Assembly: GCA_965249725.1 (NCBI GenBank)
Contig: OZ252251.1
Span: forward strand, 640,001 to 704,000
Reading direction: 5' to 3'
Source of the DNA: Longimicrobiales bacterium
GTDB lineage: Bacteria > Gemmatimonadota > Gemmatimonadetes > Longimicrobiales > Gaopeijiaceae
DNA: 64,000 nt
Both the position numbers and the translations under genes were made by a program. This document shows, in pieces, positions 41,419-64,000 of this stretch (position 1 is its first letter; every line of letters begins with the position of its first letter). The notes beneath the pieces are model-generated. The model made no database searches, was not told where the DNA came from, and saw only the letters and a list, made by a program, of their open reading frames with translations.

Positions 41419-41621
41419 GGCTCCTTCACCTCTCCGGTACTTCGGGTCACTAACGGTACGGGCATCTGTACCTGTGGCACAGAGGTATCCCGGAGCCGTG
41501 GGTGAGAACCGGGACCCAGGGCATTGCAGGATCATTCGTCCCCGTAGTATGTCCCATGGGTCGGACGCTCGCCCGCCCCGGGCCTGAGACCGTTGGATTC
41601 CAAGTCGGCAAAGGAACGACC

Positions 41622-42959: not shown

Positions 42960-44306
42960 ATGTCGTACCCCCGAACCACCATCCTGGGCGCCGTTGCGGC
43001 CTTGGTTGCCTTCGCCGTCTTCGCCCCTACGCCCTCTGAGGCGCAGTGGAATGCGCTGGAGCGCGGAAGCGACAACATCGAAGTCCTCGGACATCTGCCC
43101 CTCGGCCCCGCGCTCAACGTCGCCGATATGGACGTCGAGCAGGAGCTGTCCCGTCCCTACGCCTACGTGGCTCGCATGGTCTACGCAGGCCAGGGGGTCA
43201 TGGGCATGGACGTCATCAGCATTGAAGATCCGTCGCAACCCGAGCTGCTCTACGAGTGGCGCATCGAGGAGCAGGACCTGCACCTCGGTCGAGGCGGCAT
43301 GGACGTCAAGCACTTCAAGTGGAATGATCGCTACTACGTGATCCAGTCCACCCAATTCGGGCAGGGTGGCCCGGATTCGGACATGGGCGGCGTCGTTCTC
43401 GACGTGACCGGTCTACCCGATGCATCGACGGTTCGTGAGGTCGCGCGAATCAGAGAGCCTCTCATGCCGGGTGGCTTCCACAACATCTTCGTCTACAAGC
43501 ACTCCGACGGGCGGGTGTTGTTGTTCGCAACAGTTTCAGGCGCCTTCGCGCAGGTTTACGACCTGGGCAAGCTGGTTGAAGGCGCCTCGTCCGAAGAGGC
43601 ACGCGCCGGCCGGGTCCCCAACCCCAGCTCGGACGAAGGAGGTGGACGGGGATATCACGACTTCTACGTCGGCTACCATCCAGACACCGATCAGGATCGG
43701 TTCTACGGCGGTGGCGGTGGTGGGTACTACATCTACAACGTCAGCGACCTTGAGGAGCCCGAGCTGGTGGTCACGCTCACGGGCGTCAGCGGTGTCGGTG
43801 GCGGCCACACGTTCACGCCTGGCCCGAACGGTCGCTACGTGGTGGCGGAGACGGAGTACGAGTTCGCACCGCTCAGAATCTTCGACCTGGAGCCTGCCCT
43901 GGAAGGGGAGGCCACGAACATCCGCCGACCCATCTCGGGTTGGACGGCCGACTACAAAAACTTGACCCACAATCACGAGATCCGGTGGCCGTTGGTCTTC
44001 GTGTCCGGCTATCTGGATGGTCTCCAGGTGTTCAGCCTCCAGGATCCGTACAATCCGGTCACGGTGGGCTACTACGACACCTACATCGGTCCGCGGTCCA
44101 CCGAGACCACCCCCGTATTCAACGGCGCATTCGGAATCGACGTCCGGAATGCGGACGGGCTGATCACGATCAGCGACATGAGCACCGGATTCTGGACGTT
44201 CCGCATGGATGGCTTCCAGGGCTGGAACGGAGCGCAGTGGGGCGTGCCGGACATCTCCAGCGCTCAGAAGTGGGATGAGCCCCTGAGGCGTCCCATCAGC
44301 CAGTAG
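42960..44306 (+). CDS. Secreted LVIVD-like His beta-propeller, array copy 1
   Basis: Signal peptide; GFHN, YHD, GHT, HNHE motifs; paralogous to nine neighbours. Confidence 0.85.
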   Translation: MSYPRTTILGAVAALVAFAVFAPTPSEAQWNALERGSDNIEVLGHLPLGPALNVADMDVEQELSRPYAYVARMVYAGQGVMGMDVISIEDPSQPELLYEWRIEEQDLHLGRGGMDVKHFKWNDRYYVIQSTQFGQGGPDSDMGGVVLDVTGLPDASTVREVARIREPLMPGGFHNIFVYKHSDGRVLLFATVSGAFAQVYDLGKLVEGASSEEARAGRVPNPSSDEGGGRGYHDFYVGYHPDTDQDRFYGGGGGGYYIYNVSDLEEPELVVTLTGVSGVGGGHTFTPGPNGRYVVAETEYEFAPLRIFDLEPALEGEATNIRRPISGWTADYKNLTHNHEIRWPLVFVSGYLDGLQVFSLQDPYNPVTVGYYDTYIGPRSTETTPVFNGAFGIDVRNADGLITISDMSTGFWTFRMDGFQGWNGAQWGVPDISSAQKWDEPLRRPISQ

Positions 44307-44357
44307 CGATAGCTGCAGGCCGCGTAACACCGCCGACCCTCTCCACGGAGTTGATGC

Positions 44358-45791
44358 ATGTCTGTTTCAGGTGGCCTCTCAGGTGTTCGCGTAGTCGGAC
44401 GCGGCCTTCGCCTTGCCGTTCACCTTGCGTGTACGCTGGCATGTACGCTGGCATGTGTGATGACAGTGCTCGGGACGCCCCGTGCCTCCGCGCAGGAGTG
44501 GACCGCCCTCGATCGGGGCAGTGAAAACATCGACGTGCTGGGCCACCTGCCGTTGGGCGGCCCGCTCAACGTGGGCGACATGGACGTGGAGCCGGAGGTT
44601 TCCCGCCCCTTCGCGTACGTCGGCCGCATGCGCTACGGCACGCCGGGACCCACGGGCATGGACATCATCAGCATCGAGGACCCGGACCGGCCCACGCTCC
44701 TCTACGAGTGGCGCATCGAGGATCAGGAGCTGCACACGGGACTCGGAGGCATGGACGTGAAGACGTTCAAGCTCGACGGGCGCTACTACGTGGTGCAGTC
44801 CCTTCAGTACGGCCAGGGCGGACCGGACTTCGACCTCGGTGCCGTGGTCTTCGACGTCACGGGTCTCCCCGACGCGTCGACCGTTCGTGAGGTGGCGCGG
44901 ATCCGTGAGCCGCTCCTACCTGGGGGCTTCCACAACATCTTCATCTACAAGCACTCCGACGGTCGGGCGCTCCTGTTCACGACGGTGAACGGCCCATCGG
45001 CGCACATCTACGACCTTGCGCGTGTCGTCGCGGGCGCCAGCGCGGAGGATGCACTAGTGGGTCGTGTGCCGATCCCGGATGCCGGCGGCGAGACCAGTCC
45101 CATCGGCGGCTATCACGACTTTTACGTCGGGTATCATCCCGATACGGACGAGGATCGCTTCTACGGTGGAGGTGCAGGCGGATACTTCATCTACGACGTG
45201 ACTGATCCGGCAGAGCCGGAGCTTCGGATCACGCTTACCGGCATTCGGGGCGTGCCGTTTGGGCACACCTTCACGCCCAGCCCGGACGGTCGCTACGTGA
45301 TCGCCGAGACAGAGTACGAGTTCGCTCCGCTGCGCATCTTCGATCTGCAGCCCGCCCTCGATGGCCAGACGACCAACATCAACCGCCCGATCGCAGGGTG
45401 GACGTCGGATTACCGGTATGTGGCCCACAACCACGAGGTTCGGTGGCCGTTGGTTTTTGTGTCCGGATACCTGGACGGCCTGCAGGTCTTCAACCTGCAG
45501 GACCCGACCGACCCGGTGACGGTGGGCTACTACGACACGTATATCGGGCCGCGAGCCACACTGAATCCAGACGGGGTCATGGGCGACTATGCCACCAGCC
45601 TTTTCAATGGGGCCTTCGGAGTGGATGTGCGGAACGAAGACGGCCTGATCCTGATCAGCGACTTCTCGACCGGCTTCTGGACGCTCCGCATGGACGGCTT
45701 CCAGGGCTGGAACGGAGAGCAGTGGGGCGTGCCGGATATCTCGAGCGAACAGAAATGGGACGAGCCGGTACGGCGGCCCATAAGCGAATAG
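44358..45791 (+). CDS. Secreted LVIVD-like His beta-propeller, array copy 2
   Basis: Same scaffold; extended loop PRATLNPDGVMGDYATSLF; start uncertain. Confidence 0.85.
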   Translation: MSVSGGLSGVRVVGRGLRLAVHLACTLACTLACVMTVLGTPRASAQEWTALDRGSENIDVLGHLPLGGPLNVGDMDVEPEVSRPFAYVGRMRYGTPGPTGMDIISIEDPDRPTLLYEWRIEDQELHTGLGGMDVKTFKLDGRYYVVQSLQYGQGGPDFDLGAVVFDVTGLPDASTVREVARIREPLLPGGFHNIFIYKHSDGRALLFTTVNGPSAHIYDLARVVAGASAEDALVGRVPIPDAGGETSPIGGYHDFYVGYHPDTDEDRFYGGGAGGYFIYDVTDPAEPELRITLTGIRGVPFGHTFTPSPDGRYVIAETEYEFAPLRIFDLQPALDGQTTNINRPIAGWTSDYRYVAHNHEVRWPLVFVSGYLDGLQVFNLQDPTDPVTVGYYDTYIGPRATLNPDGVMGDYATSLFNGAFGVDVRNEDGLILISDFSTGFWTLRMDGFQGWNGEQWGVPDISSEQKWDEPVRRPISE

Positions 45792-45819
45792 AATCTCAAC
45801 CCTAGCGGGAGCAGTAGAT

Positions 45820-47163
45820 ATGTCATCGTTCCGGTCCTGTGTAGTCGGCCTGGCCACGCTCGCCCTGATGGCGATCGTCGTGCCGGGGGCTTCGGCCCAG
45901 TGGACGGCCCTCAAGCGTGGTAGCGACAACATCGAGGTCGTCGCGCACCTCCCCCTCGGAGGTCGCGTCAGCGCAGCGGACACGGACATCGAGCAGGAGC
46001 TTGACAGGCCCTACGCCTACGTGGGGCGGATCTCTAACGGCGGCGGCGGCAAGGGCGTTGACGTCATTGATCTGTCAGACCCAGCGCACCCGGAGGTTCT
46101 CTACGAGTGGCGGATCGAAGATCCGGAGCTGCACCTCGGGTTGGGTGGCATGGACGTGAAGTACTTCAAGGTGGACGGCCGCTACTACGTGGTGCAGTCA
46201 CTCCAGTTCGGCCAGGGTGGTCCCGACTCCGACCTGGCTGCGGTGGTACTCGACGTGACTGATCTGCCCGATCCGTCCACGGTGCGTGAGGTGGCACGGA
46301 TGAGGGAGCCGCTTCTGCCGGGCGGCTTCCACAACATCTTCGTCTACAAGCACTCCGACGGGCGGGTGTTGTTGTTCTCCACGGTCAGCGGGCCCTTCGC
46401 CAACGTGTACGACCTGGGCATGATCGTGCAGGGCGCGGACATGGAGAGCGCGCTGGCGGGCCGGGTGCCCGTGCCGCAGGCCGCCCAAGGTGGCCAAGCG
46501 GGTGGGGGTTACCACGACTTCTACGTGGGCTATCACCCCGACACGGACGAGGATCGCTTCTACGGGGGCGGCACCGGAGGGTATTACGTCTACGACGTCA
46601 CCGACACGGAGGACCCCCAGCTCCGGATCAGCCTCACCGGTGCCCGAGGTGTAGCGCGGGGACACACCTTCACGCCCAGCCCTGACGGGCGATATGTGGT
46701 AGCCGAGACGGAGTATCAGTTCGCGCCGCTCCGTATCTTCGATCTGAAGCCCGCGCTCGACGGTGAGGTGACCAATATCAACCGGCCCATTGCGGGGTGG
46801 ACGGCCGACTTCAACAACCTCTCCCACAATCACGAAGTTCGCTGGCCGTTCGTGATCGTGTCGAGCTACCTGGACGGGATCCAGATCTTCAACCTGCAGG
46901 ACCCCACCAATCCGGTCACGGTGGGCTACTACGACACCTACATCGGGCCGCGCTTCACGGAGGATCTCAACCCGATCCTCAATGGCACGTTCGGCGTGGG
47001 CGTGCGCAACGCGGACGGGCTCATCATCGGGAGCGACTCCAGCACCGGATTCTGGGTCCTACGCATGGACGGCTTCCAGGGGTGGAACGGCGAGCAGTGG
47101 GGCATGCCGGACATCTCGAGCGCGCAGAAATGGGATGAGCCGGTCCGGAGGCCGATCAGCTGA
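45820..47163 (+). CDS. Secreted LVIVD-like His beta-propeller, array copy 3
   Basis: Same scaffold and His motifs. Confidence 0.85.
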   Translation: MSSFRSCVVGLATLALMAIVVPGASAQWTALKRGSDNIEVVAHLPLGGRVSAADTDIEQELDRPYAYVGRISNGGGGKGVDVIDLSDPAHPEVLYEWRIEDPELHLGLGGMDVKYFKVDGRYYVVQSLQFGQGGPDSDLAAVVLDVTDLPDPSTVREVARMREPLLPGGFHNIFVYKHSDGRVLLFSTVSGPFANVYDLGMIVQGADMESALAGRVPVPQAAQGGQAGGGYHDFYVGYHPDTDEDRFYGGGTGGYYVYDVTDTEDPQLRISLTGARGVARGHTFTPSPDGRYVVAETEYQFAPLRIFDLKPALDGEVTNINRPIAGWTADFNNLSHNHEVRWPFVIVSSYLDGIQIFNLQDPTNPVTVGYYDTYIGPRFTEDLNPILNGTFGVGVRNADGLIIGSDSSTGFWVLRMDGFQGWNGEQWGMPDISSAQKWDEPVRRPIS

Positions 47164-47180
47164 CTAACGGAGGATTACCG

Positions 47181-48518
47181 ATGTTGTTCAGAACACGCGC
47201 AGTCGCCGTATTCGCGGCGGCCGCCGCTGTCCTCATGGTCGCGGTCGGGTCCGCGTCGGCTCAGTGGACGCCACTGAAGCGAGGAAGCGACAACATCGAC
47301 GTGCTGGGGCATCTGCCGCTCGGAGGGCTGCACAGCGCCACCGACACCGACATTGAGCAGGAGCTCTCGAGACCCTACGCGTATGTCGGACGGAGCGTCA
47401 TCGGGCGGGGCGAGGGCCGGGGTGTCGATATCATCGACCTCTCCGACCCGGAGCGGCCGGGGCTGCTCTACTCGTGGCGGATAGAGGACGACGACGTCCA
47501 CATCGGGAGCGGCGGCATGGACGTGAAGCACTTCAAGGTCGATGGCCGCTACTACGTGGTGCAGTCACTCCAGTTCAGTCAGGGCGGGCCCGACGCGGAT
47601 ATGGGCGCGGTGGTGCTCGACGTGACAGGGCTGCCGGATCCATCGACCGTTCGCGAGGTAGCCCGGATCCGTGAACCCCTCCTGCCGGGCGGGTTCCACA
47701 ACATCTTCGTCTACCAGCACTCGGATGGGAGAGTGCTCCTTTTCACCACGGTGCGCGGGCCCAGCGCACACGTGTACGACCTTCGGAAGGTGGTGAACGG
47801 AGCCAGCGCGGAAGAGGCCCTTGCCGGGCGCGTGCCGGTTCCCGTGACCGGAGACACGCCGGGTAGTTATCACGACTTCTACGTGGGCTACCATCCCGAC
47901 ACGGATCAGGATCGCTTCTACGGCGGGGGCACGGGCGGCTACTACGTCTATAACGTCACCGACCCCGCTGACCCCGAGCTCGTCATAACGCTCACGGGGG
48001 TCCGAGGCGTTTCGTACGGGCACACGTTCACTCCCAGCCCTGACGGCCGCTACGCGGTGGCCGAGACGGAGTACCAGTTCGCCCCCCTCCGAATCTTCGA
48101 CCTGCAGCCGGCCCTGGACGGAGAGGCCGCCAATATCAACCGCCCGATCGCGGGCTGGACGGCCGACTACCGGAACCTGGTGCACAACCACGAGGTGCGC
48201 TGGCCGCTGGTGTTCGTATCCGGATACTTGGATGGCCTTCAGATCTTCAATCTGCAGGACCCCACGAATCCGGTGACCGTGGGCTACTACGACACCTATA
48301 TCGGGCCGCCGAGCCCGGTGCTGAACCCCGTATTCGGTGGGACCTTCGGCGTGGACGTGAGGAACGCGGACGGGCTCATCATCGTCAACGACTCGGGCAC
48401 GGGCTTCTGGACCTTCCGGATGGAAGGCTTCCAGGGATGGAACGGCGAGCAGTGGGGCATGCCGGACATCTCCAGTGCGCAGAAGTGGGACGAGCCGGTG
48501 CGGAGGCCCATAAGCTAA
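47181..48518 (+). CDS. Secreted LVIVD-like His beta-propeller, array copy 4
   Basis: Same scaffold and His motifs; GGAGG RBS. Confidence 0.85.
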   Translation: MLFRTRAVAVFAAAAAVLMVAVGSASAQWTPLKRGSDNIDVLGHLPLGGLHSATDTDIEQELSRPYAYVGRSVIGRGEGRGVDIIDLSDPERPGLLYSWRIEDDDVHIGSGGMDVKHFKVDGRYYVVQSLQFSQGGPDADMGAVVLDVTGLPDPSTVREVARIREPLLPGGFHNIFVYQHSDGRVLLFTTVRGPSAHVYDLRKVVNGASAEEALAGRVPVPVTGDTPGSYHDFYVGYHPDTDQDRFYGGGTGGYYVYNVTDPADPELVITLTGVRGVSYGHTFTPSPDGRYAVAETEYQFAPLRIFDLQPALDGEAANINRPIAGWTADYRNLVHNHEVRWPLVFVSGYLDGLQIFNLQDPTNPVTVGYYDTYIGPPSPVLNPVFGGTFGVDVRNADGLIIVNDSGTGFWTFRMEGFQGWNGEQWGMPDISSAQKWDEPVRRPIS

Positions 48519-48616
48519 CGTGGCGCGGTTTTTTTTCGTCCCCTAGCTTGTCGAGCACGCAGAATCGATCCGTGCCGGACCGCACGGCGCTCAATCCATA
48601 GCAGGAGCACTCTCCA

Positions 48617-49957
48617 ATGCCACGCCCACGAACCGCCGTTCTCTGTGCCGTCGTTCTGGCGCTTCTCACACTACTGCCGGTCTCCGCGGTCGCCCAGGCG
48701 ACTGCACTGAATCGCGGAAGCGACAACATCGATGTTCTCGGGCACTTGCCGCTGGGCCCCGCCCTGAGCGTGTTGGACATGGATGTGGAGCAGGAGTTGT
48801 CCAGGCCGTATGCCTACGTGGCACGTGGTCGACTCGGGCCGGCTGGGCCGCGCGGGATGGACATCATCAGCATCGAGGATCCTGACCGCCCCGAGCTCCT
48901 GCACGAGTGGCGGATCGAGGATCAGGACCTGCATGTCGGGCCGGGTGGCATGGACGTGAAGTACTTCAAGGTGAACGGCCGTTACTACGTCGTGCAGTCG
49001 GTCCAGTTCGGGCAGGGAGGGCCGAACGCCGATGTCGGTGCCGTGGTTTTGGACGTGACGGGTCTCCCGGATCCGTCCACCGTGCGTGAGGTGGCCCGTA
49101 TCAGTGAGCCCCTCTCGCCTGGTGGCTTCCACAACATCTTCGTCTACAAGCACTCCGATGGTCGTGTGCTGCTTTTCGCGACGATCAACGGCCCGTATGC
49201 CCACATGTACGATCTGGGGATGGTCGTGTCAGGGGCCACTTCCGAGCAGGCGTTGGCCGGCAAGGTGCCCATCGCGAACGACGGCAATACGCCGGTCATC
49301 GTGGGCTACCACGACTTCTACGTCGGGTATCATCCGGACACGGATGAGGACCGCTTCTACGGTGGTGGTGGCGGTGGCTACTACGTCTACGACGTGAGCG
49401 ACCCGTCGTCGCCCGAGCTCCGCATCACGTTGACGGGAATCAGCGGAGTACCGTTCGGTCACACCTTCACCCCGAGCCCCGATGGACGGTATGTCGTTGC
49501 CGAGACGGAGTACGGCTTCGCGCCGCTCAGGTTCTTCGATCTGAAGCCGGCGCTGGACGGCGAGACCATGAACATTCGCCGGCCCATCTCGGGCTGGACA
49601 CCGAACTACAAGAACGTGGTCCACAACCACGAGGTGCGCTGGCCTTGGCTGTTCGTCTCGGGCTATCACGAGGGGCTACAGGTCGTGAACCTGCAGGACC
49701 CCACGGATCCGCAGACCGTGGGCTACTACGACACCTACATCGGACCCCACACCGAAGTGATCAACCCGATCTTCAATGGTGCGTTCGGGATCGACGTGCG
49801 GAACGAGGACGGCCTGATCCTGATCAGTGACATGAGCACCGGGTTCTGGACCTTCCGCATGGATGGATTCCAGGGTTGGAACGGTGAGCAGTGGGGCCAG
49901 CCGGATATCTCCAGTGTGCAGAAATGGGATGAGCCGGTGCGCAGGCCCATCAGCTAG
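48617..49957 (+). CDS. Secreted LVIVD-like His beta-propeller, array copy 5
   Basis: Same scaffold and His motifs; AGGAG RBS. Confidence 0.85.
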   Translation: MPRPRTAVLCAVVLALLTLLPVSAVAQATALNRGSDNIDVLGHLPLGPALSVLDMDVEQELSRPYAYVARGRLGPAGPRGMDIISIEDPDRPELLHEWRIEDQDLHVGPGGMDVKYFKVNGRYYVVQSVQFGQGGPNADVGAVVLDVTGLPDPSTVREVARISEPLSPGGFHNIFVYKHSDGRVLLFATINGPYAHMYDLGMVVSGATSEQALAGKVPIANDGNTPVIVGYHDFYVGYHPDTDEDRFYGGGGGGYYVYDVSDPSSPELRITLTGISGVPFGHTFTPSPDGRYVVAETEYGFAPLRFFDLKPALDGETMNIRRPISGWTPNYKNVVHNHEVRWPWLFVSGYHEGLQVVNLQDPTDPQTVGYYDTYIGPHTEVINPIFNGAFGIDVRNEDGLILISDMSTGFWTFRMDGFQGWNGEQWGQPDISSVQKWDEPVRRPIS

Positions 49958-49994
49958 GAACAGAGTGTTGTCCATTCCAAAAGGAGGACCGTCC

Positions 49995-51329
49995 ATGTCG
50001 AACCGTCATCCACGCTATGCGGCCGCGGTTTCGACCGTATTCGCACTTCTCGTGCTCGTTGCAGCTCCCGTGTCCGGGCAGTGGACCGCCCTCAACCGGG
50101 GGAGCGACAACATGGAGGTGTTGGGACACCTCCCCCTGGGCCCCTTCCTGAACGTGTCGGACATGGACCTGGAGCAAGAGCTGTCTCGTCCCTACGCGTA
50201 TGTCTCCCGCATGGTATGGGGAGAGGGCGGTGCCAAGGGCATGGACATCGTCAGCCTCGAGGACCCTTCGCATCCCGAACTCATCTACGAGTGGCGGATC
50301 GAAGAACAGGATCTACACGTAGGGACCGGCGGCATGGACGTGAAGTACTTCAAGATTGCCGATCGTTACTACGTGGTGCAGTCGTTTCAATTCGGTCAGG
50401 GCGGTCCCGATTCGGACATGGGTGCGGTGGTCTTGGACGTGACGGGTCTCCCGGATCCATCAGCGGTTCGGGAGGTGGCCCGCATCCGAGAGCCGCTCCT
50501 GCCGGGTGGCTTCCACAACATCTTCGTCTATAAGCACTCCGACGGCCGGGTGCTGCTGTTCACGACCGTTTCCGGGCCCTACTCCCACGTCTACGATCTT
50601 GAGCGTGTGGTCGCCGGCGACATGGAAAATGCGCTGGTGGGTCGTGTGCCCGGTCCCGACCGCGAAGGTGGCGGTTCGGCCTATCACGACATCTACGTGG
50701 GCTACCATCCGGACACCGACCAGGACCGGTTCTACGGGGGCGGGACAGGTGGTTACTACATCTATGACGTCACGGACGTCGAGGCCCCCTCACTCGAAAT
50801 CAGTTTGACGGGGATCAGCGGGGTGGGCCGTGGTCACACGTTCACGCCGAGTCCCGACGGGCGCTACGCTGTGGCCGAGGTCGAGTACCAGTTCGCTCCC
50901 CTTCGGATCTTCGATCTACAGCCGGCCTTGGACGGTGAGACCACGAACATCCGTCGCCCCATCGCGGGCTGGACGGCGGACTACCAGAACCTGGTGCACA
51001 ATCACGAGGTTCGGTGGCCTTATGTGTTCGCTTCGTCGTACCTGGACGGACTCACGGTCTTCAACCTCCAGGATCCGTCCAATCCGGTGACGGTCGGCTA
51101 TTACGACACATATCTCGGAAAGCCGGGGCCCCGAAGCACCATTGTGGGTGGGGCGTTCGGCGTGGACATCCGCAATGAGGACGGCCTGATCGTCGTGAGC
51201 GACATGAACACGGGCCTGTGGACCTTCCGCATGGACGGTTTCCAGGGGTGGAGCGGCGACCAGTGGGGCGTGCCGGACATCTCGAGCGCCCAGAAGTGGG
51301 ACGAACCTCTGCGCAGACCGATCAGCTAA
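49995..51329 (+). CDS. Secreted LVIVD-like His beta-propeller, array copy 6
   Basis: Same scaffold; AAGGAGG RBS before ATG 49995. Confidence 0.85.
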   Translation: MSNRHPRYAAAVSTVFALLVLVAAPVSGQWTALNRGSDNMEVLGHLPLGPFLNVSDMDLEQELSRPYAYVSRMVWGEGGAKGMDIVSLEDPSHPELIYEWRIEEQDLHVGTGGMDVKYFKIADRYYVVQSFQFGQGGPDSDMGAVVLDVTGLPDPSAVREVARIREPLLPGGFHNIFVYKHSDGRVLLFTTVSGPYSHVYDLERVVAGDMENALVGRVPGPDREGGGSAYHDIYVGYHPDTDQDRFYGGGTGGYYIYDVTDVEAPSLEISLTGISGVGRGHTFTPSPDGRYAVAEVEYQFAPLRIFDLQPALDGETTNIRRPIAGWTADYQNLVHNHEVRWPYVFASSYLDGLTVFNLQDPSNPVTVGYYDTYLGKPGPRSTIVGGAFGVDIRNEDGLIVVSDMNTGLWTFRMDGFQGWSGDQWGVPDISSAQKWDEPLRRPIS

Positions 51330-51401
51330 CCATCACCCCATAGACATGCCCTCAACCCACTAGACATGCACGAATTCAACCTTCAGCGGGAGAAGCACTC
51401 A

Positions 51402-52739
51402 ATGTCGTTTTCCAGGTCGGCCGTTCTGAGCACGGCCCTCATCTTCGCCCTGATGGCCTGGGCGGCTCCCGCCTCGGCGCAGTGGACAGCCATGAACCGC
51501 GGCAGCGAGAACATCGAGGTGCTGGGGCACCTGCCTCTCGGTGCCCACCTGAACGTGTCCGACATGGATGTCGAGCAGGAGCTGTCTCGCCCGTACGCCT
51601 ATGTGTCCCGCATGGTCTGGGGACCCACGGGCACCAAGGGCATGGACATCGTCAGCATCGAAGACCCAGCCAACCCGGAGCGCATCTACGAATATCGGAT
51701 CGACGATCCGGACCTCCATCTCGGTACGGGGGGCATGGACGTGAAGCACTTCAAAATCGGCGACCGCTACTACGTGTTGCAGTCGTTCCAGTTCGGGCAA
51801 GGTGGTCCGGATTCCGAGCTGGGTGGGGTCGTGCTCGACGTGACGGGTCTCCCGGACGTATCGACCGTGCGTGAGGTAGGCGAGATCCGCGAGCCCCTGA
51901 TGCCCGGCGGCTTCCACAACATTTTCGTCTACAAGCACTCCGACGGTCGCGTCCTACTTTTCACGACCGTTAATGGACCCTACGCCCACATCTACGATCT
52001 GGCCGAGGTCGTGGATGGAGCCGACGCTGAAGACGCACTCGTGGGCCGCGTGCCAGTCGGTGCGGCCGAGGGTACCGGCGGAGGCTACCATGACATATAC
52101 GTTGCGTACCACCCCGACAGCGATCAGGACCGCTTCTACGGTGGCGGGACCGGTGGGTACTTCGTCTACGACGTGTCGGATCCCAGCAGCCCCTCGTTGG
52201 AGATCACCCTGGTGGGGATCCGTGGCATCACATACGGACACACCTTCACGCCGAGCCCCGATGGTCGGTACGCGGTAGCCGAGGTCGAGTATCGGTATGC
52301 GCCTCTGAGGATCTTCGACCTCAAGCCGGCGTTGGACGGTGAAACCACCAACATCAACCGGCCCGTATCGGGTTGGACCGCCGACTACCAGAACCTGGTG
52401 CACAACCACGAGGTGCGGTGGCCTCTCGTGTTCGCTTCGTCGTACCTCGACGGGCTGACCATCTTCAACCTCCAGGATCCGTCGAATCCGCAGACGGTGG
52501 GCTACTACGACACCTACATCGGCAAGCGCACACAGGATCGGTGCCCGGAGTGCAATGGCGCGTTCGGGGTCGACGTCCGGAATGCGGACGGTCTGATCCT
52601 CATCAGCGACATGAGCACGGGGCTTTGGACGTTCAAGATGGAGGGCTTCAACGGCTGGAATGGTGAGCAGTGGGGCATGCCCGACATCTCCAGCGCCCAG
52701 AAGTGGGACGAGCCGGTGCGCAGGCCCATTAGCCAGTAG
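51402..52739 (+). CDS. Secreted LVIVD-like His beta-propeller, array copy 7
   Basis: Same scaffold; CPEC in the last variable loop. Confidence 0.85.
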   Translation: MSFSRSAVLSTALIFALMAWAAPASAQWTAMNRGSENIEVLGHLPLGAHLNVSDMDVEQELSRPYAYVSRMVWGPTGTKGMDIVSIEDPANPERIYEYRIDDPDLHLGTGGMDVKHFKIGDRYYVLQSFQFGQGGPDSELGGVVLDVTGLPDVSTVREVGEIREPLMPGGFHNIFVYKHSDGRVLLFTTVNGPYAHIYDLAEVVDGADAEDALVGRVPVGAAEGTGGGYHDIYVAYHPDSDQDRFYGGGTGGYFVYDVSDPSSPSLEITLVGIRGITYGHTFTPSPDGRYAVAEVEYRYAPLRIFDLKPALDGETTNINRPVSGWTADYQNLVHNHEVRWPLVFASSYLDGLTIFNLQDPSNPQTVGYYDTYIGKRTQDRCPECNGAFGVDVRNADGLILISDMSTGLWTFKMEGFNGWNGEQWGMPDISSAQKWDEPVRRPISQ

Positions 52740-52954
52740 CGCCAGTCAAACGTCGGAACGCGACGGTCACGTTGCTCGGCTCCCCCGGACACGGCACCTG
52801 TGTTGCCCCGGGGGGAGTGCGGGAACCCACCCGTTATACGCAACGGCAGGTAGACTCTGGGTTGATAGGTAACAGGAGGTTACGGGGTGAACGGCGGCCT
52901 AGGGCGCGGCAAACGAACCTGCGACGGACTGATGGAGCTACGCCAAGTCGAGCG

Positions 52955-54409
52955 TTAGAGCCCGTAGATCAGGCGAGCGTTCTCGAGCCCGATGAGCCGA
53001 GCGAGGTCCGGGGGGAGGGCCTGCAGCAAGGCCTCGAACGGCTCCATGTGTGCGTCGATGAGGTCGGGGTTGGCGTAGAAGGTGTCGGAGCCCAGAACGA
53101 AGCGGTCGGGGAAGGCCGTGAAGAGTGCAAGCCACTCCGGTCGCAGCGCACCTCCTTCGTCGAGCGGCGCGTGCTCGGGAAAGAGCGGCACGATGGCGTC
53201 ACTATATATGAGGACCTGGAGGAAGAGGTTGGGGTGAGCCTCGAGCAGGGTGCCAAGCAGCTCCACGGTCATGTCGCCGGTGTTGTCCCAGCCGACATGG
53301 GCCCACACGATGCGCGTCTCCTGATTGTGCGAAAGGAGTCGCTCCAGTGCGTCGACGTTGGCACGTAGGGAGGCCGGGTTCAGGGCGCTGCGCTGCAAGA
53401 AGACTGGGGGTGTAGGCTTCTCGGTCACCACCGCCTCCATGTGAAGGTCGATGGGAACGCCGTACTGCGCGGCCAGGTCCGCCGCGAGAAGGAAGGCGGC
53501 ATGATCGGGCGGCATCTCGAGGAATGGGTGCTCGGGCCGAAAGGAGAGGTGTAGCGCAGTGAGCTCACCTAAGACGACCGAGCCGCTGGTGGAGAGCTGC
53601 GCCGCCGCGGCTACCAAAGCGTCTGAAAGTTCGGACGTGAGGCCGTCTACCTGGCTCTGGTGAAGAAGCGGGTTGAGCGAGAAGCCGCCAGCGGCGAAGG
53701 CGAAGCGGTCAGACCGGCTGGTGATGGCCGCTGATAGCGCGCTTTCGAAGGCGTTGGCTGCTACGGGTGAAGGAGGTGGCATCATCACCGCCTGCACGAC
53801 GTGGTGCACATCTTGGCGAGCGACGGCTCGGTCCAGGCAGGCAGGATCGAAGCAGCTGACCATCTCACCCGGCCCAAAAGTGGGGTGCGTGTGCGTGTCG
53901 ATCCATGTCGCCGCGGGGGCGGGGGCTACCATCGTGGCTACTGCCGTTCCGCTTCGTCCCTCGCTCGAGGCCGTGAGGGTGCTCACGCCAGGTCCGACGG
54001 CTGTGACGAGCCCGCTGGCACTAACGGTCGCGGCACCTTGGCTCGAGCTGGACCAGGTGACCGTTCGACCGGAAAGCACATTCCCGCCTGCGTCCGTCAC
54101 GGTGGCCGTGAATTGCGCCGTTTGACCGATTTCGAGCGTAATCGAACTCGGAGAGACCGCTACCGAGGCGACAGGCACGGGGAGGGTAGGCCCCGGCGCA
54201 GTAGGCTGCTCGGAGCTGCCTCCACCCTCACCACCACCGCAAGCTGTTAGTGCCAGTAAGAGGACCAACCAAGTTAGGAACTTCCGATTCTGGCTTTGCT
54301 TAAGATCCTCAGCCAGATGCACCGTGGCCATGCCACCCTCGCCCAACTCACGCTCGATGGCGTAGCGGCCCTCCAAAGCCGAGTTCAGGCGGTCAACTGG
54401 ATCGGACAT
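52955..54409 (-). CDS. Ig-like (Big_2) plus amidohydrolase lipoprotein with an N-terminal Ser/Thr kinase remnant
   Basis: RYAIERELGEGGMATVHLAEDLK kinase subdomain I; lipobox LTAC; VASVAVSPS...VTWSSS Big_2; IDTHTH, DLHME, WAHVG, LGSD. Confidence 0.78.
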   Translation of the reverse strand: MSDPVDRLNSALEGRYAIERELGEGGMATVHLAEDLKQSQNRKFLTWLVLLLALTACGGGEGGGSSEQPTAPGPTLPVPVASVAVSPSSITLEIGQTAQFTATVTDAGGNVLSGRTVTWSSSSQGAATVSASGLVTAVGPGVSTLTASSEGRSGTAVATMVAPAPAATWIDTHTHPTFGPGEMVSCFDPACLDRAVARQDVHHVVQAVMMPPPSPVAANAFESALSAAITSRSDRFAFAAGGFSLNPLLHQSQVDGLTSELSDALVAAAAQLSTSGSVVLGELTALHLSFRPEHPFLEMPPDHAAFLLAADLAAQYGVPIDLHMEAVVTEKPTPPVFLQRSALNPASLRANVDALERLLSHNQETRIVWAHVGWDNTGDMTVELLGTLLEAHPNLFLQVLIYSDAIVPLFPEHAPLDEGGALRPEWLALFTAFPDRFVLGSDTFYANPDLIDAHMEPFEALLQALPPDLARLIGLENARLIYGL

Positions 54410-54494
54410 GGGCACTCCCCGGACTAGACCGTTGTGAATGTCCGGGTTCGGGGAGCGCAAGCAGAACGACGTTGAAGGCCGACTCAGCAAGGTC

Positions 54495-54628
54495 GCCTAA
54501 CAAGCTGGTTTGCACGAACTCGCATGCGCTCGTTCGCCCTTCGGGTAACGCGCCGCTGGTCACTGCGCTTGCCTTCGCAAGCTCGTGGCCTGTCTCGCGG
54601 CGCGCTCGCGAACCAGACTCCGTTCGCC
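54495..54628 (+). mobile_element. attC-like recombination site (134 bp)
   Basis: R'' GCCTAAC at 54495, R' GTT at 54622, arms CTGGTTTGC/GCGAACCAG and CGCGCCGC/GCGGCGCG, inner hairpins. Confidence 0.65.
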
Positions 54629-54805
54629 GCCCGGGGGAGTGCGGGCACCCACCCCGACGTTCTCCGAATCGTTCCCCCTCGGACCGCTGCCCGGGCCCGC
54701 CCCGTTGGCGGGTTTTTCGACGGCCCCGTAGGTTGTGGGCCACGCTTGTTTCAACAGGACGCGCCGCTCAGCCTGGCGCATCGACTTCAGCGGGAGGCAC
54801 CGCTC

Positions 54806-56155
54806 ATGCTCTACACTCGGCCAACCCTCATAGCGACGGCGTTCGCCCTCGCGGCGTTGATCGCCACGGCCGTGGCTCCCGTTTCGGCCCAGTGGACTCC
54901 GTTGAGCCGCGGGAGTGACAACATCGAGGTGCTCGGGCACCTCCCTGTGGGTCCCGCTCTCAGCGTCTCGGACATGGATGTGGAGCAGGAGCTGTCCCGT
55001 CCCTACGCTTACATGAGCCGCATGGCCTATGGCGGCGAAGGGCCCATGGGCCTCGACATCATCAGCATCGAGGACCCGGGGAATCCGCAGATCCTCTACG
55101 AATGGCGGATCGCCGACCGCGACCTCCACTCGGGTAACGGGGGGATGGACGTGAAGTACTTCAAGGTGAACGGCCGCTATTACGTGGTGCAGTCGACACA
55201 GTTCGGCCAGGGTGGTCCGGACTCGGACATGGGCGCCGTAGTGCTCGACGTCACGGGTCTGCCCGATCCGTCCACCGTGCGTGAGGTCGCCAGGCTCCGT
55301 GAGCCGCTGCTGCCCGGCGGCTTCCACAACATCTTCGTCTACAAGCACTCGGATGGCCGAGTGCTGCTGTTCGCCACCGTCAGTGGGCCGTTCGCCAACG
55401 TGTATGACCTGGGCAAGGTGGTTCAGGGGGCATCCGCCGAGGAGGCGCTCGCCGGACAGGTTCCCAACCCGCAATCTCAGGCCGCCGGCGGCGGACGAGG
55501 GTACCACGACTTCTACGTCGCCTACCATCCGGATACCGATGAGGACCGCTTCTACGGAGGTGGCGGTGGCGGGTACTACATCATCGACGTCTCCGATCTG
55601 TCGGATCCACAGGTCCGCATCACGCTGACGGGCGTCCGCGGAGTGGGCGGGGGCCACACGTTCACCCCGAGCTCCGACGGCCGCTACGTCGTCGCCGAGA
55701 CAGAGTATCAGTTCGCGCCCCTCCGGTTGTTCGACCTCAAGCCTGCTCTCGATGGAGAGGTCACCAACATCAACCGCCCGATCTCGGGCTGGACCGCGGA
55801 CTGGAACAACCTGGTCCACAATCACGAGGTCCGTTGGCCCTACGTGTTCGTGACCGGTTATCTGGACGGACTCCAGGTCTTCAACATGCAGGACCCCGCG
55901 AATCCGCAGACGGTTGCCTATTACGACACGTACATCGGAGTTCGCGATCCCGAGCGTTGCCAGGAGTGCAACGGTGCGTTCGGGGTCGACGTTCGCAACG
56001 CCGACGGACTCATCGTGATCAGCGACATGAGCACTGGCCTGTGGACGTTTCGCATGGACGGCTTCCAAGGTTGGAACGGAGAGCAGTGGGGGATGCCCGA
56101 CATCTCCAGCGCTCAGAAGTGGGATGAGTCGGTACGGCGGCCGATTAGTGATTAG
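54806..56155 (+). CDS. Secreted LVIVD-like His beta-propeller, array copy 8
   Basis: Same scaffold; GGGAGG RBS; CQEC loop. Confidence 0.85.
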   Translation: MLYTRPTLIATAFALAALIATAVAPVSAQWTPLSRGSDNIEVLGHLPVGPALSVSDMDVEQELSRPYAYMSRMAYGGEGPMGLDIISIEDPGNPQILYEWRIADRDLHSGNGGMDVKYFKVNGRYYVVQSTQFGQGGPDSDMGAVVLDVTGLPDPSTVREVARLREPLLPGGFHNIFVYKHSDGRVLLFATVSGPFANVYDLGKVVQGASAEEALAGQVPNPQSQAAGGGRGYHDFYVAYHPDTDEDRFYGGGGGGYYIIDVSDLSDPQVRITLTGVRGVGGGHTFTPSSDGRYVVAETEYQFAPLRLFDLKPALDGEVTNINRPISGWTADWNNLVHNHEVRWPYVFVTGYLDGLQVFNMQDPANPQTVAYYDTYIGVRDPERCQECNGAFGVDVRNADGLIVISDMSTGLWTFRMDGFQGWNGEQWGMPDISSAQKWDESVRRPISD

Positions 56156-56231
56156 CCGAAGCCGCTCCTCTATCGAGCACTCGTCCATAAAGATATATCA
56201 CAGAAGCACTTACAGCAGGAGCACACGGTTC

Positions 56232-57581
56232 ATGTCACACCATCGGTCAAGTACGGTAGCGACGGCTTTTGCCGTCGTAGCTCTCGTCGCACTCGCCGCG
56301 GCGCCGGTCTCTGCGCAGTGGACCGCCATGAAGCGCGGTAGCGACAACATCGAGGTCATCGGCCACCTGCCGCTGGGGCCGGCCTTGAGTGTTTCCGATA
56401 TGGATGTGGAGCAGGAGTTGTCCCGTCCGTATGCCTATGTGTCGCGAATGCTCTACGGTGTCACCGGCCCCAAGGGCATGGACATCATCAGCATCGAAGA
56501 CCCGGCCAACCCCGAGATCATCTACGAGTGGCGGATCGAAGAGCAGGATCTTCATCTGGGCCGAGGCGGCATGGATGCCAAGCACTTCAAGATCGGCAAC
56601 CGCTACTACGTGGTTCAGTCCACGCAGTTCGGCCAGGGCGGCCCCAATTCAGACATGGGCGCCGTGGTCCTTGATGTGACCGGACTGCCGGACCCGGCCA
56701 CGGTCCGAGAGGTCAACCGAATCCGGGAGCCTCTGCGTCCCGGTGGCTTCCACAACATCTTCATCTACAAGCACTCTGATGGCCGAGTACTTCTGTTCGC
56801 GACGGCGGCCGGGCGGGTCGCCTTGATCTACGACCTCGCTCTGGTGGTGGATGGTGCGGACGCCGAAGCGGCCCTCGTCGGGGAGGTTCCGATCCCCAAT
56901 CAACCCGAGGGCCAGGACAACAGGAGTTATCACGACTTCTACGTCGGCTACCATCCGGACACCGATCAGGACCGGTTCTACGGGGGTGCCGGGGGCGGCT
57001 ACTACATCTATGACGTGACGGATCCGGCGAATCCCAACCTCGAAATCACCCTTACGGGGATTCGCGGGGTGGAGTGGGGTCACACATTCACGCCCAGCCC
57101 GGACGGTCGCTACGTGGTGGCCGAGGCCGAGTACCAGTTCGCACCGCTCCGTATCTTCGACCTGAAGCCGGCTCTGGACGGCCAGACGACCAACATCAAC
57201 CGCCCGATCTCAGGCTGGACGGCGGACTACGACAACCTGGTGCACAACCACGAGATCCGGTGGCCCTGGATGTTCGTGACGGGCTATGTGGACGGCCTTC
57301 AGGTCGTAAACCTCCAGGATCCGACGAACCCCGTGACAGTCGGCTACTACGACACGTACCTCGGTGTCAAAGACCCGACCCGGTGCCAGGAGTGTAACGG
57401 GTCCTTCGGAATCGACGTCCGCAACGAAGACGGACTCATCGTCATGAGCGACATGAGCACCGGCCTCTGGACTTTCCGCATGGACGGCTTCCAGGGTTGG
57501 AGCGGTGAGCAGTGGGGTATGCCGGACCTGTCGAGTGCCCAGAAGTGGGACGAGCCGGTGCGGAGGCCGATCAGTCAGTAG
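56232..57581 (+). CDS. Secreted LVIVD-like His beta-propeller, array copy 9
   Basis: Same scaffold; CQEC loop. Confidence 0.85.
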   Translation: MSHHRSSTVATAFAVVALVALAAAPVSAQWTAMKRGSDNIEVIGHLPLGPALSVSDMDVEQELSRPYAYVSRMLYGVTGPKGMDIISIEDPANPEIIYEWRIEEQDLHLGRGGMDAKHFKIGNRYYVVQSTQFGQGGPNSDMGAVVLDVTGLPDPATVREVNRIREPLRPGGFHNIFIYKHSDGRVLLFATAAGRVALIYDLALVVDGADAEAALVGEVPIPNQPEGQDNRSYHDFYVGYHPDTDQDRFYGGAGGGYYIYDVTDPANPNLEITLTGIRGVEWGHTFTPSPDGRYVVAEAEYQFAPLRIFDLKPALDGQTTNINRPISGWTADYDNLVHNHEIRWPWMFVTGYVDGLQVVNLQDPTNPVTVGYYDTYLGVKDPTRCQECNGSFGIDVRNEDGLIVMSDMSTGLWTFRMDGFQGWSGEQWGMPDLSSAQKWDEPVRRPISQ

Positions 57582-57714
57582 GAAACTCAACAAATCATGC
57601 ACGCCGGCTGTCTATATATACTGGCGAGGTTCCTGACGCCTTGGTAGATTACGTGGACGTCGGCGACAGCGCTGATCGTACGTGGCAAATCATCTAAAGT
57701 TGGAGAGATCGCCC

Positions 57715-59064
57715 ATGCAACGCTCCCGGACCGGCATCCTCGCGGCTGCCATCCTTACAGTTCTCGCTACCAGCATGCCCGCTGATGCGTCTGCGCAAGA
57801 GATGAACGCGCTCACGCGTGGCAGTGACAATATCGAGGTGCTAGGGCATCTCCCCCTCGGACCCGCCCTAAACACGTCGGACATGGACGTTGAGCAGGAG
57901 ATGTCCCGTCCTTATGCCTACGTCGGTCGGATGGCATACGGTGGCGTTGGCGTGAAGGGCATGGACATCATCAGCATCGAGGATCCGTCGAATCCGGAGA
58001 TTCTGTACGAGTGGCGCATCGAGGACCAGGATCTCCACCTGGGCCTGGGCGGGATGGACGTGAAGCACTTCAAGTGGAACGACCGCTACTACGTGGTGCA
58101 GTCGCTCCAGTTTGGTCAGGGTGGACCGGACGCGGACCTCGGCGCGGTAGTGCTCGACGTCACAGGTCTTCCCGATCCGTCCACGGTGCGTGAGGTCGCG
58201 CGAATCCATGAGCCGCTGATGCCGGGTGGTTTCCACAACATCTTTATCTATAAGCACTCGAGTGGTCGGGTGCTGCTCTTCACGACCATCGGAGGACCCT
58301 TTGCTCAGATCTATGACCTGGGCACGCTCGTCGAGGGTGGCTCCACTGAGGATGCGCGGGCCGGCCGGGTGCCGAACCCGCAGTCCCAAGAGACCGGCGG
58401 TAACGGCGGGTACCACGACTTCTACGTCGGATACCATCCGGACACCGATGAAGACCGCTTCTACGGCGGCGGGCGCGGTGGTTACTACATCATCGACGTT
58501 ACGGATCTTTCGGATCCGCAGGTTCGCATCACCCTGACGGGCGTCAGCGGAGTGGGCGGTGGTCACACGTTCACGCCGAGCCCCGACGGCCGGTACGTGG
58601 TTGCCGAGACCGAGTACGAGTTCGCTCCGCTCCGGTTCTTCGACCTGCAGCCGGCGCTGGACGGCGAAACGACCAACATTCGTCGGCCCATCTCCGGCTG
58701 GACATCGAACTACAAGAACCTCGTGCACAACCACGAGGTCCGTTGGCCCTGGCTGTTCGTCTCGGGCTACCTGGACGGACTCCAAGTCGTGAACCTCCAG
58801 GATCCGACCAATCCGCAGACCGTGGGGTATTACGACACTTACATCGGTGCGCGCCGCGCGGATCGTACGCCCGTGTTCAACGGCGCGTTCGGGATAGACG
58901 TGAGAAACGCGGATGGGCTAATATTGATCAGTGATATGAGCACGGGGTTCTGGACCTTCCGAATGGACGGCTTCCAGGGCTGGAACGGCGAGCAGTGGGG
59001 AGTCCCCGACATCTCCAGCGCTCAGAAGTGGGATGAGCCCGTGCGTCGTCCAATAAGCGAGTAG
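57715..59064 (+). CDS. Secreted LVIVD-like His beta-propeller, array copy 10
   Basis: Same scaffold and His motifs; GGAGAG RBS. Confidence 0.85.
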   Translation: MQRSRTGILAAAILTVLATSMPADASAQEMNALTRGSDNIEVLGHLPLGPALNTSDMDVEQEMSRPYAYVGRMAYGGVGVKGMDIISIEDPSNPEILYEWRIEDQDLHLGLGGMDVKHFKWNDRYYVVQSLQFGQGGPDADLGAVVLDVTGLPDPSTVREVARIHEPLMPGGFHNIFIYKHSSGRVLLFTTIGGPFAQIYDLGTLVEGGSTEDARAGRVPNPQSQETGGNGGYHDFYVGYHPDTDEDRFYGGGRGGYYIIDVTDLSDPQVRITLTGVSGVGGGHTFTPSPDGRYVVAETEYEFAPLRFFDLQPALDGETTNIRRPISGWTSNYKNLVHNHEVRWPWLFVSGYLDGLQVVNLQDPTNPQTVGYYDTYIGARRADRTPVFNGAFGIDVRNADGLILISDMSTGFWTFRMDGFQGWNGEQWGVPDISSAQKWDEPVRRPISE

Positions 59065-59067
59065 ATC

Positions 59068-59613
59068 ATGAACATCTTTATTCCGATTGCGGTGGCGGTG
59101 CTGGGTGTAGGGCCCAACGGGGCTCAGGCGGCCCCGGCCATGTGTTTCGCCGCCGACAACCAGCCTCCCGTCTTCTATCGGGTGGAGCTCATCACCACGA
59201 AGCGAGTCCCGGGGTCGGGAATGGCGACCGGCGCGGGCGAGATCACGTTCACGCCCTCTCCGTTCGCGGTGAACCTCACGCCTGAGGGTGATTACCTGCG
59301 TGACGTGAACATCACCGTGAACGGTCTCAAGCCGGCTGCGAGCGGCAACTACGTCGCTTGGGTGACGACCCCCGCATTGGACCGCACCACGCGGCTCGGC
59401 GTGCTTGATGCCGACGGAACCGCCAGCGGACAGATCGCCTTCAACAAGTTCCTCCTCGTGATCTCTCTCGAGGAAGACGACGGCTCGTCCTCGGAGCGTT
59501 GGAAGGGACCCATCGCGCTGAGGGGCATGTCCCGGAGTGGGGCAATGCACACCTCTGCGGGGCACGGACCCTTCGTGGTCGAGAACTGCACGGGGTACGG
59601 CTTCAACGGGTAA
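59068..59613 (+). CDS. Secreted hypothetical beta-rich protein with His/Met/Cys tail
   Basis: Signal peptide, two Cys, MHTSAGH; starts 3 nt after copy 10. Confidence 0.7.
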   Translation: MNIFIPIAVAVLGVGPNGAQAAPAMCFAADNQPPVFYRVELITTKRVPGSGMATGAGEITFTPSPFAVNLTPEGDYLRDVNITVNGLKPAASGNYVAWVTTPALDRTTRLGVLDADGTASGQIAFNKFLLVISLEEDDGSSSERWKGPIALRGMSRSGAMHTSAGHGPFVVENCTGYGFNG

Positions 59614-59701
59614 GGAGTCAGCCCGTTCACAACGACATCCCCGTCGGTCTCGGTCATCCGTGGCCGACGGGGATGTTTCGCTTTCAACCGAAGTGATACG
59701 C

Positions 59702-63903: not shown

Positions 63904-64000
63904 GTCTCGCACTCCTCGTAGGGATGGGGTCTAAATCTCGAAAAGCGGGAGGGATGACGCCATGGGTCTGTACGACATCTTCTTGCTCCTCGCCACTGCG

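Follow-up and report, generated by a model that had tools for sequence, protein, structure and literature searches.

Top-face loops in a tandem array of predicted seven-bladed propeller proteins diverged after duplication and are retained between species

The window analysed here, a stretch of 64,000 nucleotides from a Longimicrobiales bacterium (contig OZ252251.1, positions 640,001 to 704,000), contains a tandem array of ten related genes whose products are predicted to fold as seven-bladed β-propellers. A preliminary description of this DNA had noted a constant scaffold with variable loops next to conserved His and Asp residues, and we find this loop observation to be real, specific to one face of the propeller and biologically meaningful. 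From the comparisons below, we consider it probable that the array is an old tandem expansion in which the loops of the top face changed fast after duplication and were then fixed, so that every copy of this predicted metalloenzyme came to have a substrate pocket of its own. Rather than an antibody-like repertoire, the ten genes likely make up a long-standing set of specialised enzymes.

The ten genes are intact, lie on the + strand within positions 42960-59064 of the window and encode proteins of 444-477 aa; neighbours are separated by 17-133 bp, except for a 2 kb break between genes 7 and 8. In the protein alignment p2-p10 are 70-80% identical to p1, whose residue numbering is used throughout. 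Every array protein has, as read by eye, a signal-peptide-like N-terminus ending in AQ or GQ and no visible anchor. The genes, with their orthologs in the arrays of related genomes, are:

p1, 42960..44306, + strand: 448 aa, signal peptide ending in AQ, reference for residue numbers; orthologs in G031-G034
p2, 44358..45791, + strand: long insertion in the loop between blades 6 and 7; the ortholog L046:858 retains the insertion
p3, 45820..47163, + strand: orthologs in L045 and L046
p4, 47181..48518, + strand: ortholog not found among the arrays examined
p5, 48617..49957, + strand: ortholog in L046
p6, 49995..51329, + strand: orthologs in L044, L045 and L046
p7, 51402..52739, + strand: ortholog not found among the arrays examined
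p8, 54806..56155, + strand: orthologs in L045 and L046
p9, 56232..57581, + strand: orthologs in L044 and L045
p10, 57715..59064, + strand: last gene of the array; adjoins the small partner gene, as the single-copy gene does in relatives

The mature p1 protein, modelled by AlphaFold2 with 150 sequences, is a seven-bladed β-propeller with a predicted local distance difference test score (pLDDT) of 94.3 and a predicted template modelling score (pTM) of 0.93. Judged by strand order, the inner strands start at A55, M114, H174, H233, H283, H337 and F391, and in the predicted structure the four hub histidines begin strand a of blades 3-6. When per-column variability is placed on the propeller, all seven sites listed in the preliminary description fall in loops of the d-a or b-c type, which make up the top face, where the four hub histidines also lie. 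The placement of these loops beside conserved His is borne out; as for the conserved Asp, these residues come after the hub position and do not occupy it. In p1 the top loops and hub positions are:

43098..43124, + strand: top loop from blade 7 to 1, after HLPLG, residues 47-55
43179..43202, + strand: top b-c loop of blade 1, after AYVxR, residues 74-81; contains Y75
43263..43301, + strand: top loop from blade 1 to 2, residues 102-113, and hub M114, which aligns with Sb-PTE E201
43479..43481, + strand: H174, hub histidine of blade 3, kept in 44/45 paralogs
43620..43658, + strand: top loop from blade 3 to 4, residues 221-231, of variable length, containing R230, and hub H233 (45/45)
43782..43808, + strand: top loop from blade 4 to 5, residues 275-282, and hub H283 (45/45)
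43944..43979, + strand: top loop from blade 5 to 6, residues 329-336, and HNHE (H337 45/45, H339 40/45, E340 45/45)
44076..44126, + strand: top loop from blade 6 to 7, residues 373-389, after YYDTY; contains F387

A CxxC motif (CPEC, CQEC) has been gained in the blade 6-7 top loop of p7, p8 and p9 (in p7 at window 52514-52540); it is retained in the p8 and p9 orthologs and may have added a disulfide or metal pair close to the pocket.

We scored heterozygosity over 405 alignment columns of the ten paralogs. The motifs that had been quoted are present: after HLPLG, PALNVA (p1), GPLNVG (p2), GRVSAA (p3), GLHSAT (p4), PFLNVS (p6) and AHLNVS (p7); after AYVxR, five strings in p1-p5; and elsewhere LGR, TGL, IGS, VGP and SGN as well as GG, PF, AR, SY, GR, TY and EW. 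Differences are indeed concentrated at fixed sites (autocorrelation 0.23, reached by none of 5000 permutations). The listed sites make up 46 of the 405 columns and have a mean heterozygosity of 0.67, against 0.20 elsewhere; yet no more than 31% of the total heterozygosity falls in them, along with 33 of the 72 columns that vary most; of these 72, 16 lie in bottom loops and 15 in strands. Taken by face, heterozygosity is 1.8 times as high in the top loops (0.387) as in the bottom loops (0.217; p 1e-4, or p 0.014 with loops as units), and 15 of 16 indel columns fall in top-face loops.

Relatives carry one propeller gene beside the same two downstream genes, and their divergence is matched to that of the array (76% identity for 8 orthologs, 75% for the paralogs). 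Seven single-copy orthologs have no face bias (top 0.269, bottom 0.275, p 0.53). In codon models, the ratio of nonsynonymous to synonymous substitution rates (dN/dS) of the top loops is about twice that of the bottom loops in paralogs (p < 1e-10), whereas the two are equal in orthologs (p 0.62-0.98); the ortholog control for heterozygosity and codon models omitted G011, which nests in the array clade, and the second copy of G013. The ratio of top to bottom variability is 1.20-1.96 in 11 of 11 arrays, namely that of the window and ten others, several of them labelled Rhodothermales or Bacteroidota, with His-less members left out of the per-array ratios; it is 0.91 in 54 single-copy loci. The set of 80 loci from relatives overlaps partly with the first control and includes some short contigs and several related arrays, and its counts are not independent. 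Five positions that vary in arrays are near-fixed among the 54 single-copy genes: Y75 (53), L131 (53), R230 (53), F387 (52) and M407 (54). As judged from the sequences, this contrast likely separates probable catalytic residues (His174, His233, His283, His337 and Glu340) from probable specificity residues (Y75, L131, R230, T253, F387 and M407).

Eight of the ten array genes have orthologs in the arrays of G031-G034, which hold 2, 4, 6 and 7 copies, and the gene order of the three longer of these arrays is a sub-order of that in the window. The paralog-specific loops are recognisably retained in the orthologs, the long insertion of p2 included. Between a window gene and its ortholog (17 pairs), identity is 0.84 in both the top and the bottom loops while 50% of four-fold sites differ; between a window gene and a non-ortholog (119 pairs), identity is 0.645 in the top and 0.78 in the bottom loops. 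On duplication versus speciation branches, dN/dS is 0.29 versus 0.064 for the top loops, 0.11 versus 0.071 for the bottom loops and 0.089 versus 0.034 for the rest, which corresponds to a speed-up after duplication of 4.5-fold, 1.6-fold and 2.6-fold, respectively. With branch lengths fixed, a model with equal dN/dS in top and bottom loops fails for the duplication branches (p 7e-12), whereas the speciation branches are consistent with it (p 0.26). After duplication some 14% of sites move to omega 1.0; the top loops, which account for 27% of sites, hold 29 of the 39 clearest cases. When the other 35 paralogs of the genome are compared with those of the congener G002, the top-to-bottom ratio is 0.72 in 26 ortholog pairs and 1.38-1.62 in paralog pairs. 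The loops, earlier called hypervariable, are therefore not so: those of a given paralog persist in its orthologs from other species, at a dN/dS of 0.06. The proposal that they define specificity holds in part. The excess change is specific to paralogs and post-duplication branches, as would be expected of loops that shape specificity; the further step to a distinct substrate for each paralog is one that we infer.

The genome from which the window comes (G000; 4.16 Mb, 96% complete) has 45 members of the family. H233, H283, H337, D234, E340, H108 and H181 are kept in 45/45, H174 in 44/45, H339 in 40/45 and E297 in 31/45; H174, H233, H283 and H337 are all present in 54/54 single-copy genes, and the ring is retained in 109 of 115 full-length genes. 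Distant relatives, at about 33% identity, retain the scaffold but have lost the hub histidines, so the fold does not require them. Position 114 is Met in 10/10 array genes and 54/54 single-copy genes; among the 45 paralogs it is Lys in nine and Glu in one, and in most of those outside the array it is Lys, Leu or Val. Six arrays in other genomes begin with a member missing part or all of the ring, possibly a non-catalytic subunit or binder (L060:1493-2968, L065:2042-3370, L075:1488-2864, L098:2501-4276, L118:1442-2848 and L122:3-1334). The Lys-114 subgroup comprises, in G000, C2:200659-210845 and C3:136277, 196737, 219909, 221299 and 1914328, and in relatives L043:7952 and L083:6496.

Two genes follow the array:

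59068..59613, + strand: small partner protein, 181 aa, likely secreted, predicted β-barrel, follows p10
59537..61453, + strand: multicopper oxidase, probable start at 59702

The model of the small protein (pLDDT 81) has as its top ten structural matches only Cu/Zn superoxide dismutase (SOD) or SOD-chaperone entries (Z 7.0-8.6). Its low-confidence C-terminal tail contains an invariant His, His and Cys; the alignment behind this omits L064, L067, L053 and L080, which contain stops or ambiguous bases, and seven more of the 80. By analogy only, it resembles SOD1 and domain 2 of the copper chaperone for SOD (CCS), with a flexible His/His/Cys tail. Around the small gene, in the best 80 of 228 relatives, a multicopper oxidase lies within 10 kb in 80/80 and a propeller gene is present in 76/80. 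The oxidase of the window does not carry the canonical ligand set of a three-domain multicopper oxidase (ten His, a Cys and an axial ligand in four motifs): the type-1 ligands are kept, and three His of the trinuclear site are replaced (HWH to RWH, HCH to NCQ) in 3/3 genome copies. The RWH form occurs in 13 of the 80 loci, mostly the closest relatives of the window, and the RWH/NCQ oxidases possibly act as an electron relay rather than as an oxidase. Their clade consists of window 59537-61453, G000 C3:291901-293736 and C3:137600-139747, L043-L053, L064 and L084. The small-protein barrel is also found fused to the N-terminus of an oxidase (G000 C3:137600, L031:8044).

The nearest solved relative is Sb-PTE, the phosphotriesterase (haloalkylphosphorus hydrolase) of Sphingobium sp. 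TCM1 (PDB 5HRM/5IOJ), likewise a seven-bladed propeller, which hydrolyses phosphotriesters with two Mn ions. Its structure was reportedly published under a title naming a binuclear metal centre in such a propeller fold, and we know of no substrates for it other than man-made ones. Entry 5HRM is the top Foldseek match of the p1 model (E 2e-11, template modelling (TM) score 0.63) and the top PDB match in profile sequence searches (E 0.004, 4.6e-6 and 4.5e-4), at 14-15% identity. H174, H233, H283, H337 and E297 fit, by blade order and spacing, what we take to be its ligand layout, four His at blades 3-6 plus a terminal Glu; a sub-region profile of blades 3-6 against Sb-PTE gave E 1 with the wrong blade aligned. 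Sb-PTE E201, which we take to be the bridging metal ligand, stands opposite M114 in two profile alignments, both locally weak; the adjacent D115 lies one residue away. On this glutamate, replaced by Met, the array proteins would fall outside the Sb-PTE group, and the family further differs in its specific Trp-rich tail, its multicopper oxidase linkage and its up to 45 copies per genome. The alignment program VIA-align matched the p1 model to generic seven-bladed WD40 propellers (Z ~31); its top 50 matches, all generic seven-bladed propellers, include neither 5HRM nor nitrous oxide reductase nor methanethiol oxidase, which excludes nothing. The latter two, copper propeller enzymes, presumably share hub histidines and dedicated copper partners with the array proteins, an analogy only, and differ in that they are not among the listed structural matches of the p1 model. 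A profile match to a PDB β-peptidyl aminopeptidase (E 0.02-0.19) was rejected, since we take that enzyme to have a different fold.

We hypothesize that the array works as follows. Each protein would be exported to the periplasm, where His174, His233, His283 and His337, with Glu297, His339/Glu340 and Met114, are modelled to meet atop the central channel. This ring would bind a metal. Copper would be the most likely one, and we put copper against another metal at about even; it is favoured because of the Met at the bridging position, the SOD-like small gene and the oxidase in 80/80 small-gene loci. The SOD-like small protein, shared by the copies, and the oxidase may load copper or serve it with electrons. 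Which small molecule gets to the ring would depend on the top loops together with Y75, L131, R230, T253, F387 and M407; with the whole set of copies, a single periplasm could handle various related organics that are imported. After duplication the loops would have been remodelled and then conserved, and the arrays would since have evolved by differential gene loss, lineages losing different copies.

Several observations weigh against this account. The same sites are variable among the seven single-copy orthologs (0.46, against 0.21 elsewhere), column variability in the paralogs correlates at 0.60 with that in eight orthologs, and part of the loop signal is ordinary loop tolerance because these sites vary where the gene is single-copy. 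The rise in dN/dS after duplication extends to the bottom loops and the rest of the protein. Three codon-frequency models and a branch-site mixture were used to look for positive selection: site-wise analysis gave no class above 1 (M8 versus M8a, p 0.43-0.5), and the mixture gave omega 1.0 with p 0.5 and no support for omega > 1. Synonymous sites are near saturation, and absolute dN/dS, 0.03-0.08 overall, depends on the model. The two faces were told apart by DSSP strand order and the usual topology of propellers, after the alignment had been inspected, and so stand for topology rather than measured distance. The best SOD match of the small protein is middling (Z 8.6, root mean square deviation 3.3, 105 aligned), and the 45 propellers of the genome stand against three such oxidases and three small-protein genes, with one further copy of the small-protein domain fused to an oxidase. 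Relaxation or drift followed by fixation may be compatible with the data because no dN/dS exceeds 1, and the copies could then do the same job, their top loops freed while redundant and later fixed, with the array serving dosage or split regulation. That the shifted class fits omega 1.0 and that the loops are tolerant in orthologs too would suit such a history, which we nonetheless hold unlikely: the release is strongly biased to the top face, it strikes residues near-invariant in 54 single-copy genes from several phyla, the new loop states then came under a dN/dS of 0.06, and up to 45 diverged copies have been retained. An immune-like or evasion repertoire that is still diversifying by positive selection, gene conversion or a diversity-generating retroelement is very improbable and already largely refuted; nor is the repertoire reading of the preliminary description supported. 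In favour of such a repertoire are the 45 copies in the genome and a scaffold that stays constant while loops and indels vary on one face. Against it stand the conservation of the loops in orthologs, the lack of any site class above 1, and the lack of a membrane anchor visible in the array sequences. Gene conversion does not account for the constant scaffold: synonymous difference is 0.51-0.64 in all 45 array pairs, and the longest identical tract is 54 nt. A diversity-generating retroelement was likewise rejected, the sole reverse transcriptase of the genome being far from the array and no template-like copy being found in the genome. Contigs from four sequencing runs (three studies) cover all 30 bins and include pieces of 1-2.5 kb with 0-2 differences across the genes, none spanning the whole array; of ten variants chosen among the 40 listed of 200, eight lay in genes and seven of those were synonymous, while no variant hit a top loop. 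Where run contigs join two paralogs over short stretches (21-37 letters a side), we read this as cross-mapping. The reverse transcriptase (L128:5389-6627, on C3 of G000) is group II intron-like and lies directly after a non-array paralog; a template repeat was not found.

Two further alternatives accept the loops as functional and concern what the proteins do. The same pocket specialisation could belong to Mn/Zn hydrolases like Sb-PTE, acting on esters, amides, phospho- or sulfo-esters, with the copper genes linked yet separate in function; we take this seriously while holding it somewhat unlikely. Sb-PTE is the nearest relative by both fold and sequence, the four His and Glu297 presumably match its ligand spacing, R72 (invariant in the array) and R230 (53/54 single-copy genes) could bind an anion, hydrolases adjoin other propeller clusters, and Lys-114 of nine paralogs could, if carboxylated, presumably bridge metals as in amidohydrolases. 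The Met at position 114 of every array and single-copy gene, with Glu in a single paralog, speaks against it, as does an oxidase linkage that is near absolute over several phyla. Alternatively, the proteins could be metal-dependent binding or protein-interaction modules rather than catalysts, with loops that recognise different ligands or interaction partners, for instance the small protein. Binding of partners by the top face is common among propellers, the top VIA-align matches are WD40 proteins, the six arrays noted above are headed by His-less members and some clusters adjoin SusC/SusD genes; we judge this quite unlikely given the His ring in 109 of 115 full-length genes, the fact that the only solved sequence relative is an enzyme, and the single small gene for ten diverged copies, more in keeping with a varied substrate pocket than with an interface common to all.

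Duplication, change of the pocket and fixation, the course that we favour for the array, is a familiar evolutionary pattern; the propeller family itself is unfamiliar. The array supplies naturally occurring pocket variants built on a single scaffold, and it has implications for the natural role of LVIVD-like propellers and of the ancestor of Sb-PTE. A bolder proposal, tentative and in our view rather unlikely, is a novel periplasmic superfamily of copper enzymes, in which His/Met-ring propellers would be loaded by a CCS-like chaperone and coupled to the oxidase, which in this lineage would have lost its oxygen-reducing site and would serve as a type-1 electron relay, the 45 pocket variants forming a toolkit in the style of P450 enzymes that oxidises diverse organics.

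The family has no curated model and is uncharacterised, and its homologs are labelled as hypothetical proteins of Gemmatimonadota or Longimicrobiales; open-access literature searches found, in the texts they reached, no account of the propeller family or of the three-gene module. All ten array genes match TIGR04312 (choice-of-anchor B) at 35-47 bits, below its cut-off of 100 bits. Two match PF08309 (LVIVD repeat) at 17.4 and 19.2 bits, below the gathering cut-off of 20.2 bits, and the other eight do not match it at E 0.01; one close homolog has a precomputed PF08309 hit, and Atlas neighbours are auto-named LVIVD proteins. A true choice-of-anchor B protein in the window has His at similar blade starts (HNIV, HDAQ, HQGW, HNLY), whereas the array proteins have no anchor domain, and the LVIVD and choice-of-anchor B families are themselves of uncharacterised function. 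An unrelated LVIVD protein is named in one preprint as a possible attachment factor (10.1101/2022.05.06.490989).

About 1.5% of the source genome is given to the propeller family. Two congeners have 13 and 35 family matches, and 16 sampled genomes of other genera in the same family have 0-3; the congeners, G001 and G002 (both ~90% complete), share most of the other paralogs, and an array-clade member was not found in either. Other propeller clusters adjoin SusC-type importers (in 4 of the 18 regions retrieved), amidases, amidohydrolases, peptidases and transporters, in neighbour scans of 84 and 60 of 135 neighbouring open reading frames (ORFs). A promoter and terminator scan gave signal at or below chance. 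The remaining genes around the array are:

41502..42836, + strand: directly upstream of the array, SelA-related pyridoxal phosphate enzyme, score below the DgaE cut-off; not beside the module in five relatives searched
52955-54490, - strand: interrupting ORF, splits the array between genes 7 and 8
61468-63912, - strand: the FG-GAP and true choice-of-anchor B protein, with His at comparable blade starts; at least six relatives in the genome

The interrupting ORF consists of a short kinase-like N-terminal piece followed by immunoglobulin-like (Big_2) and amidohydrolase domains, and the genome has about 20 similar pieces; one run has 31 differences in a 900-nt contig at this ORF, so that the insert may be more polymorphic than the array. 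Elsewhere in the genome, at C3:1903222-1906030, 19 tRNA genes lie on one strand within 3 kb.

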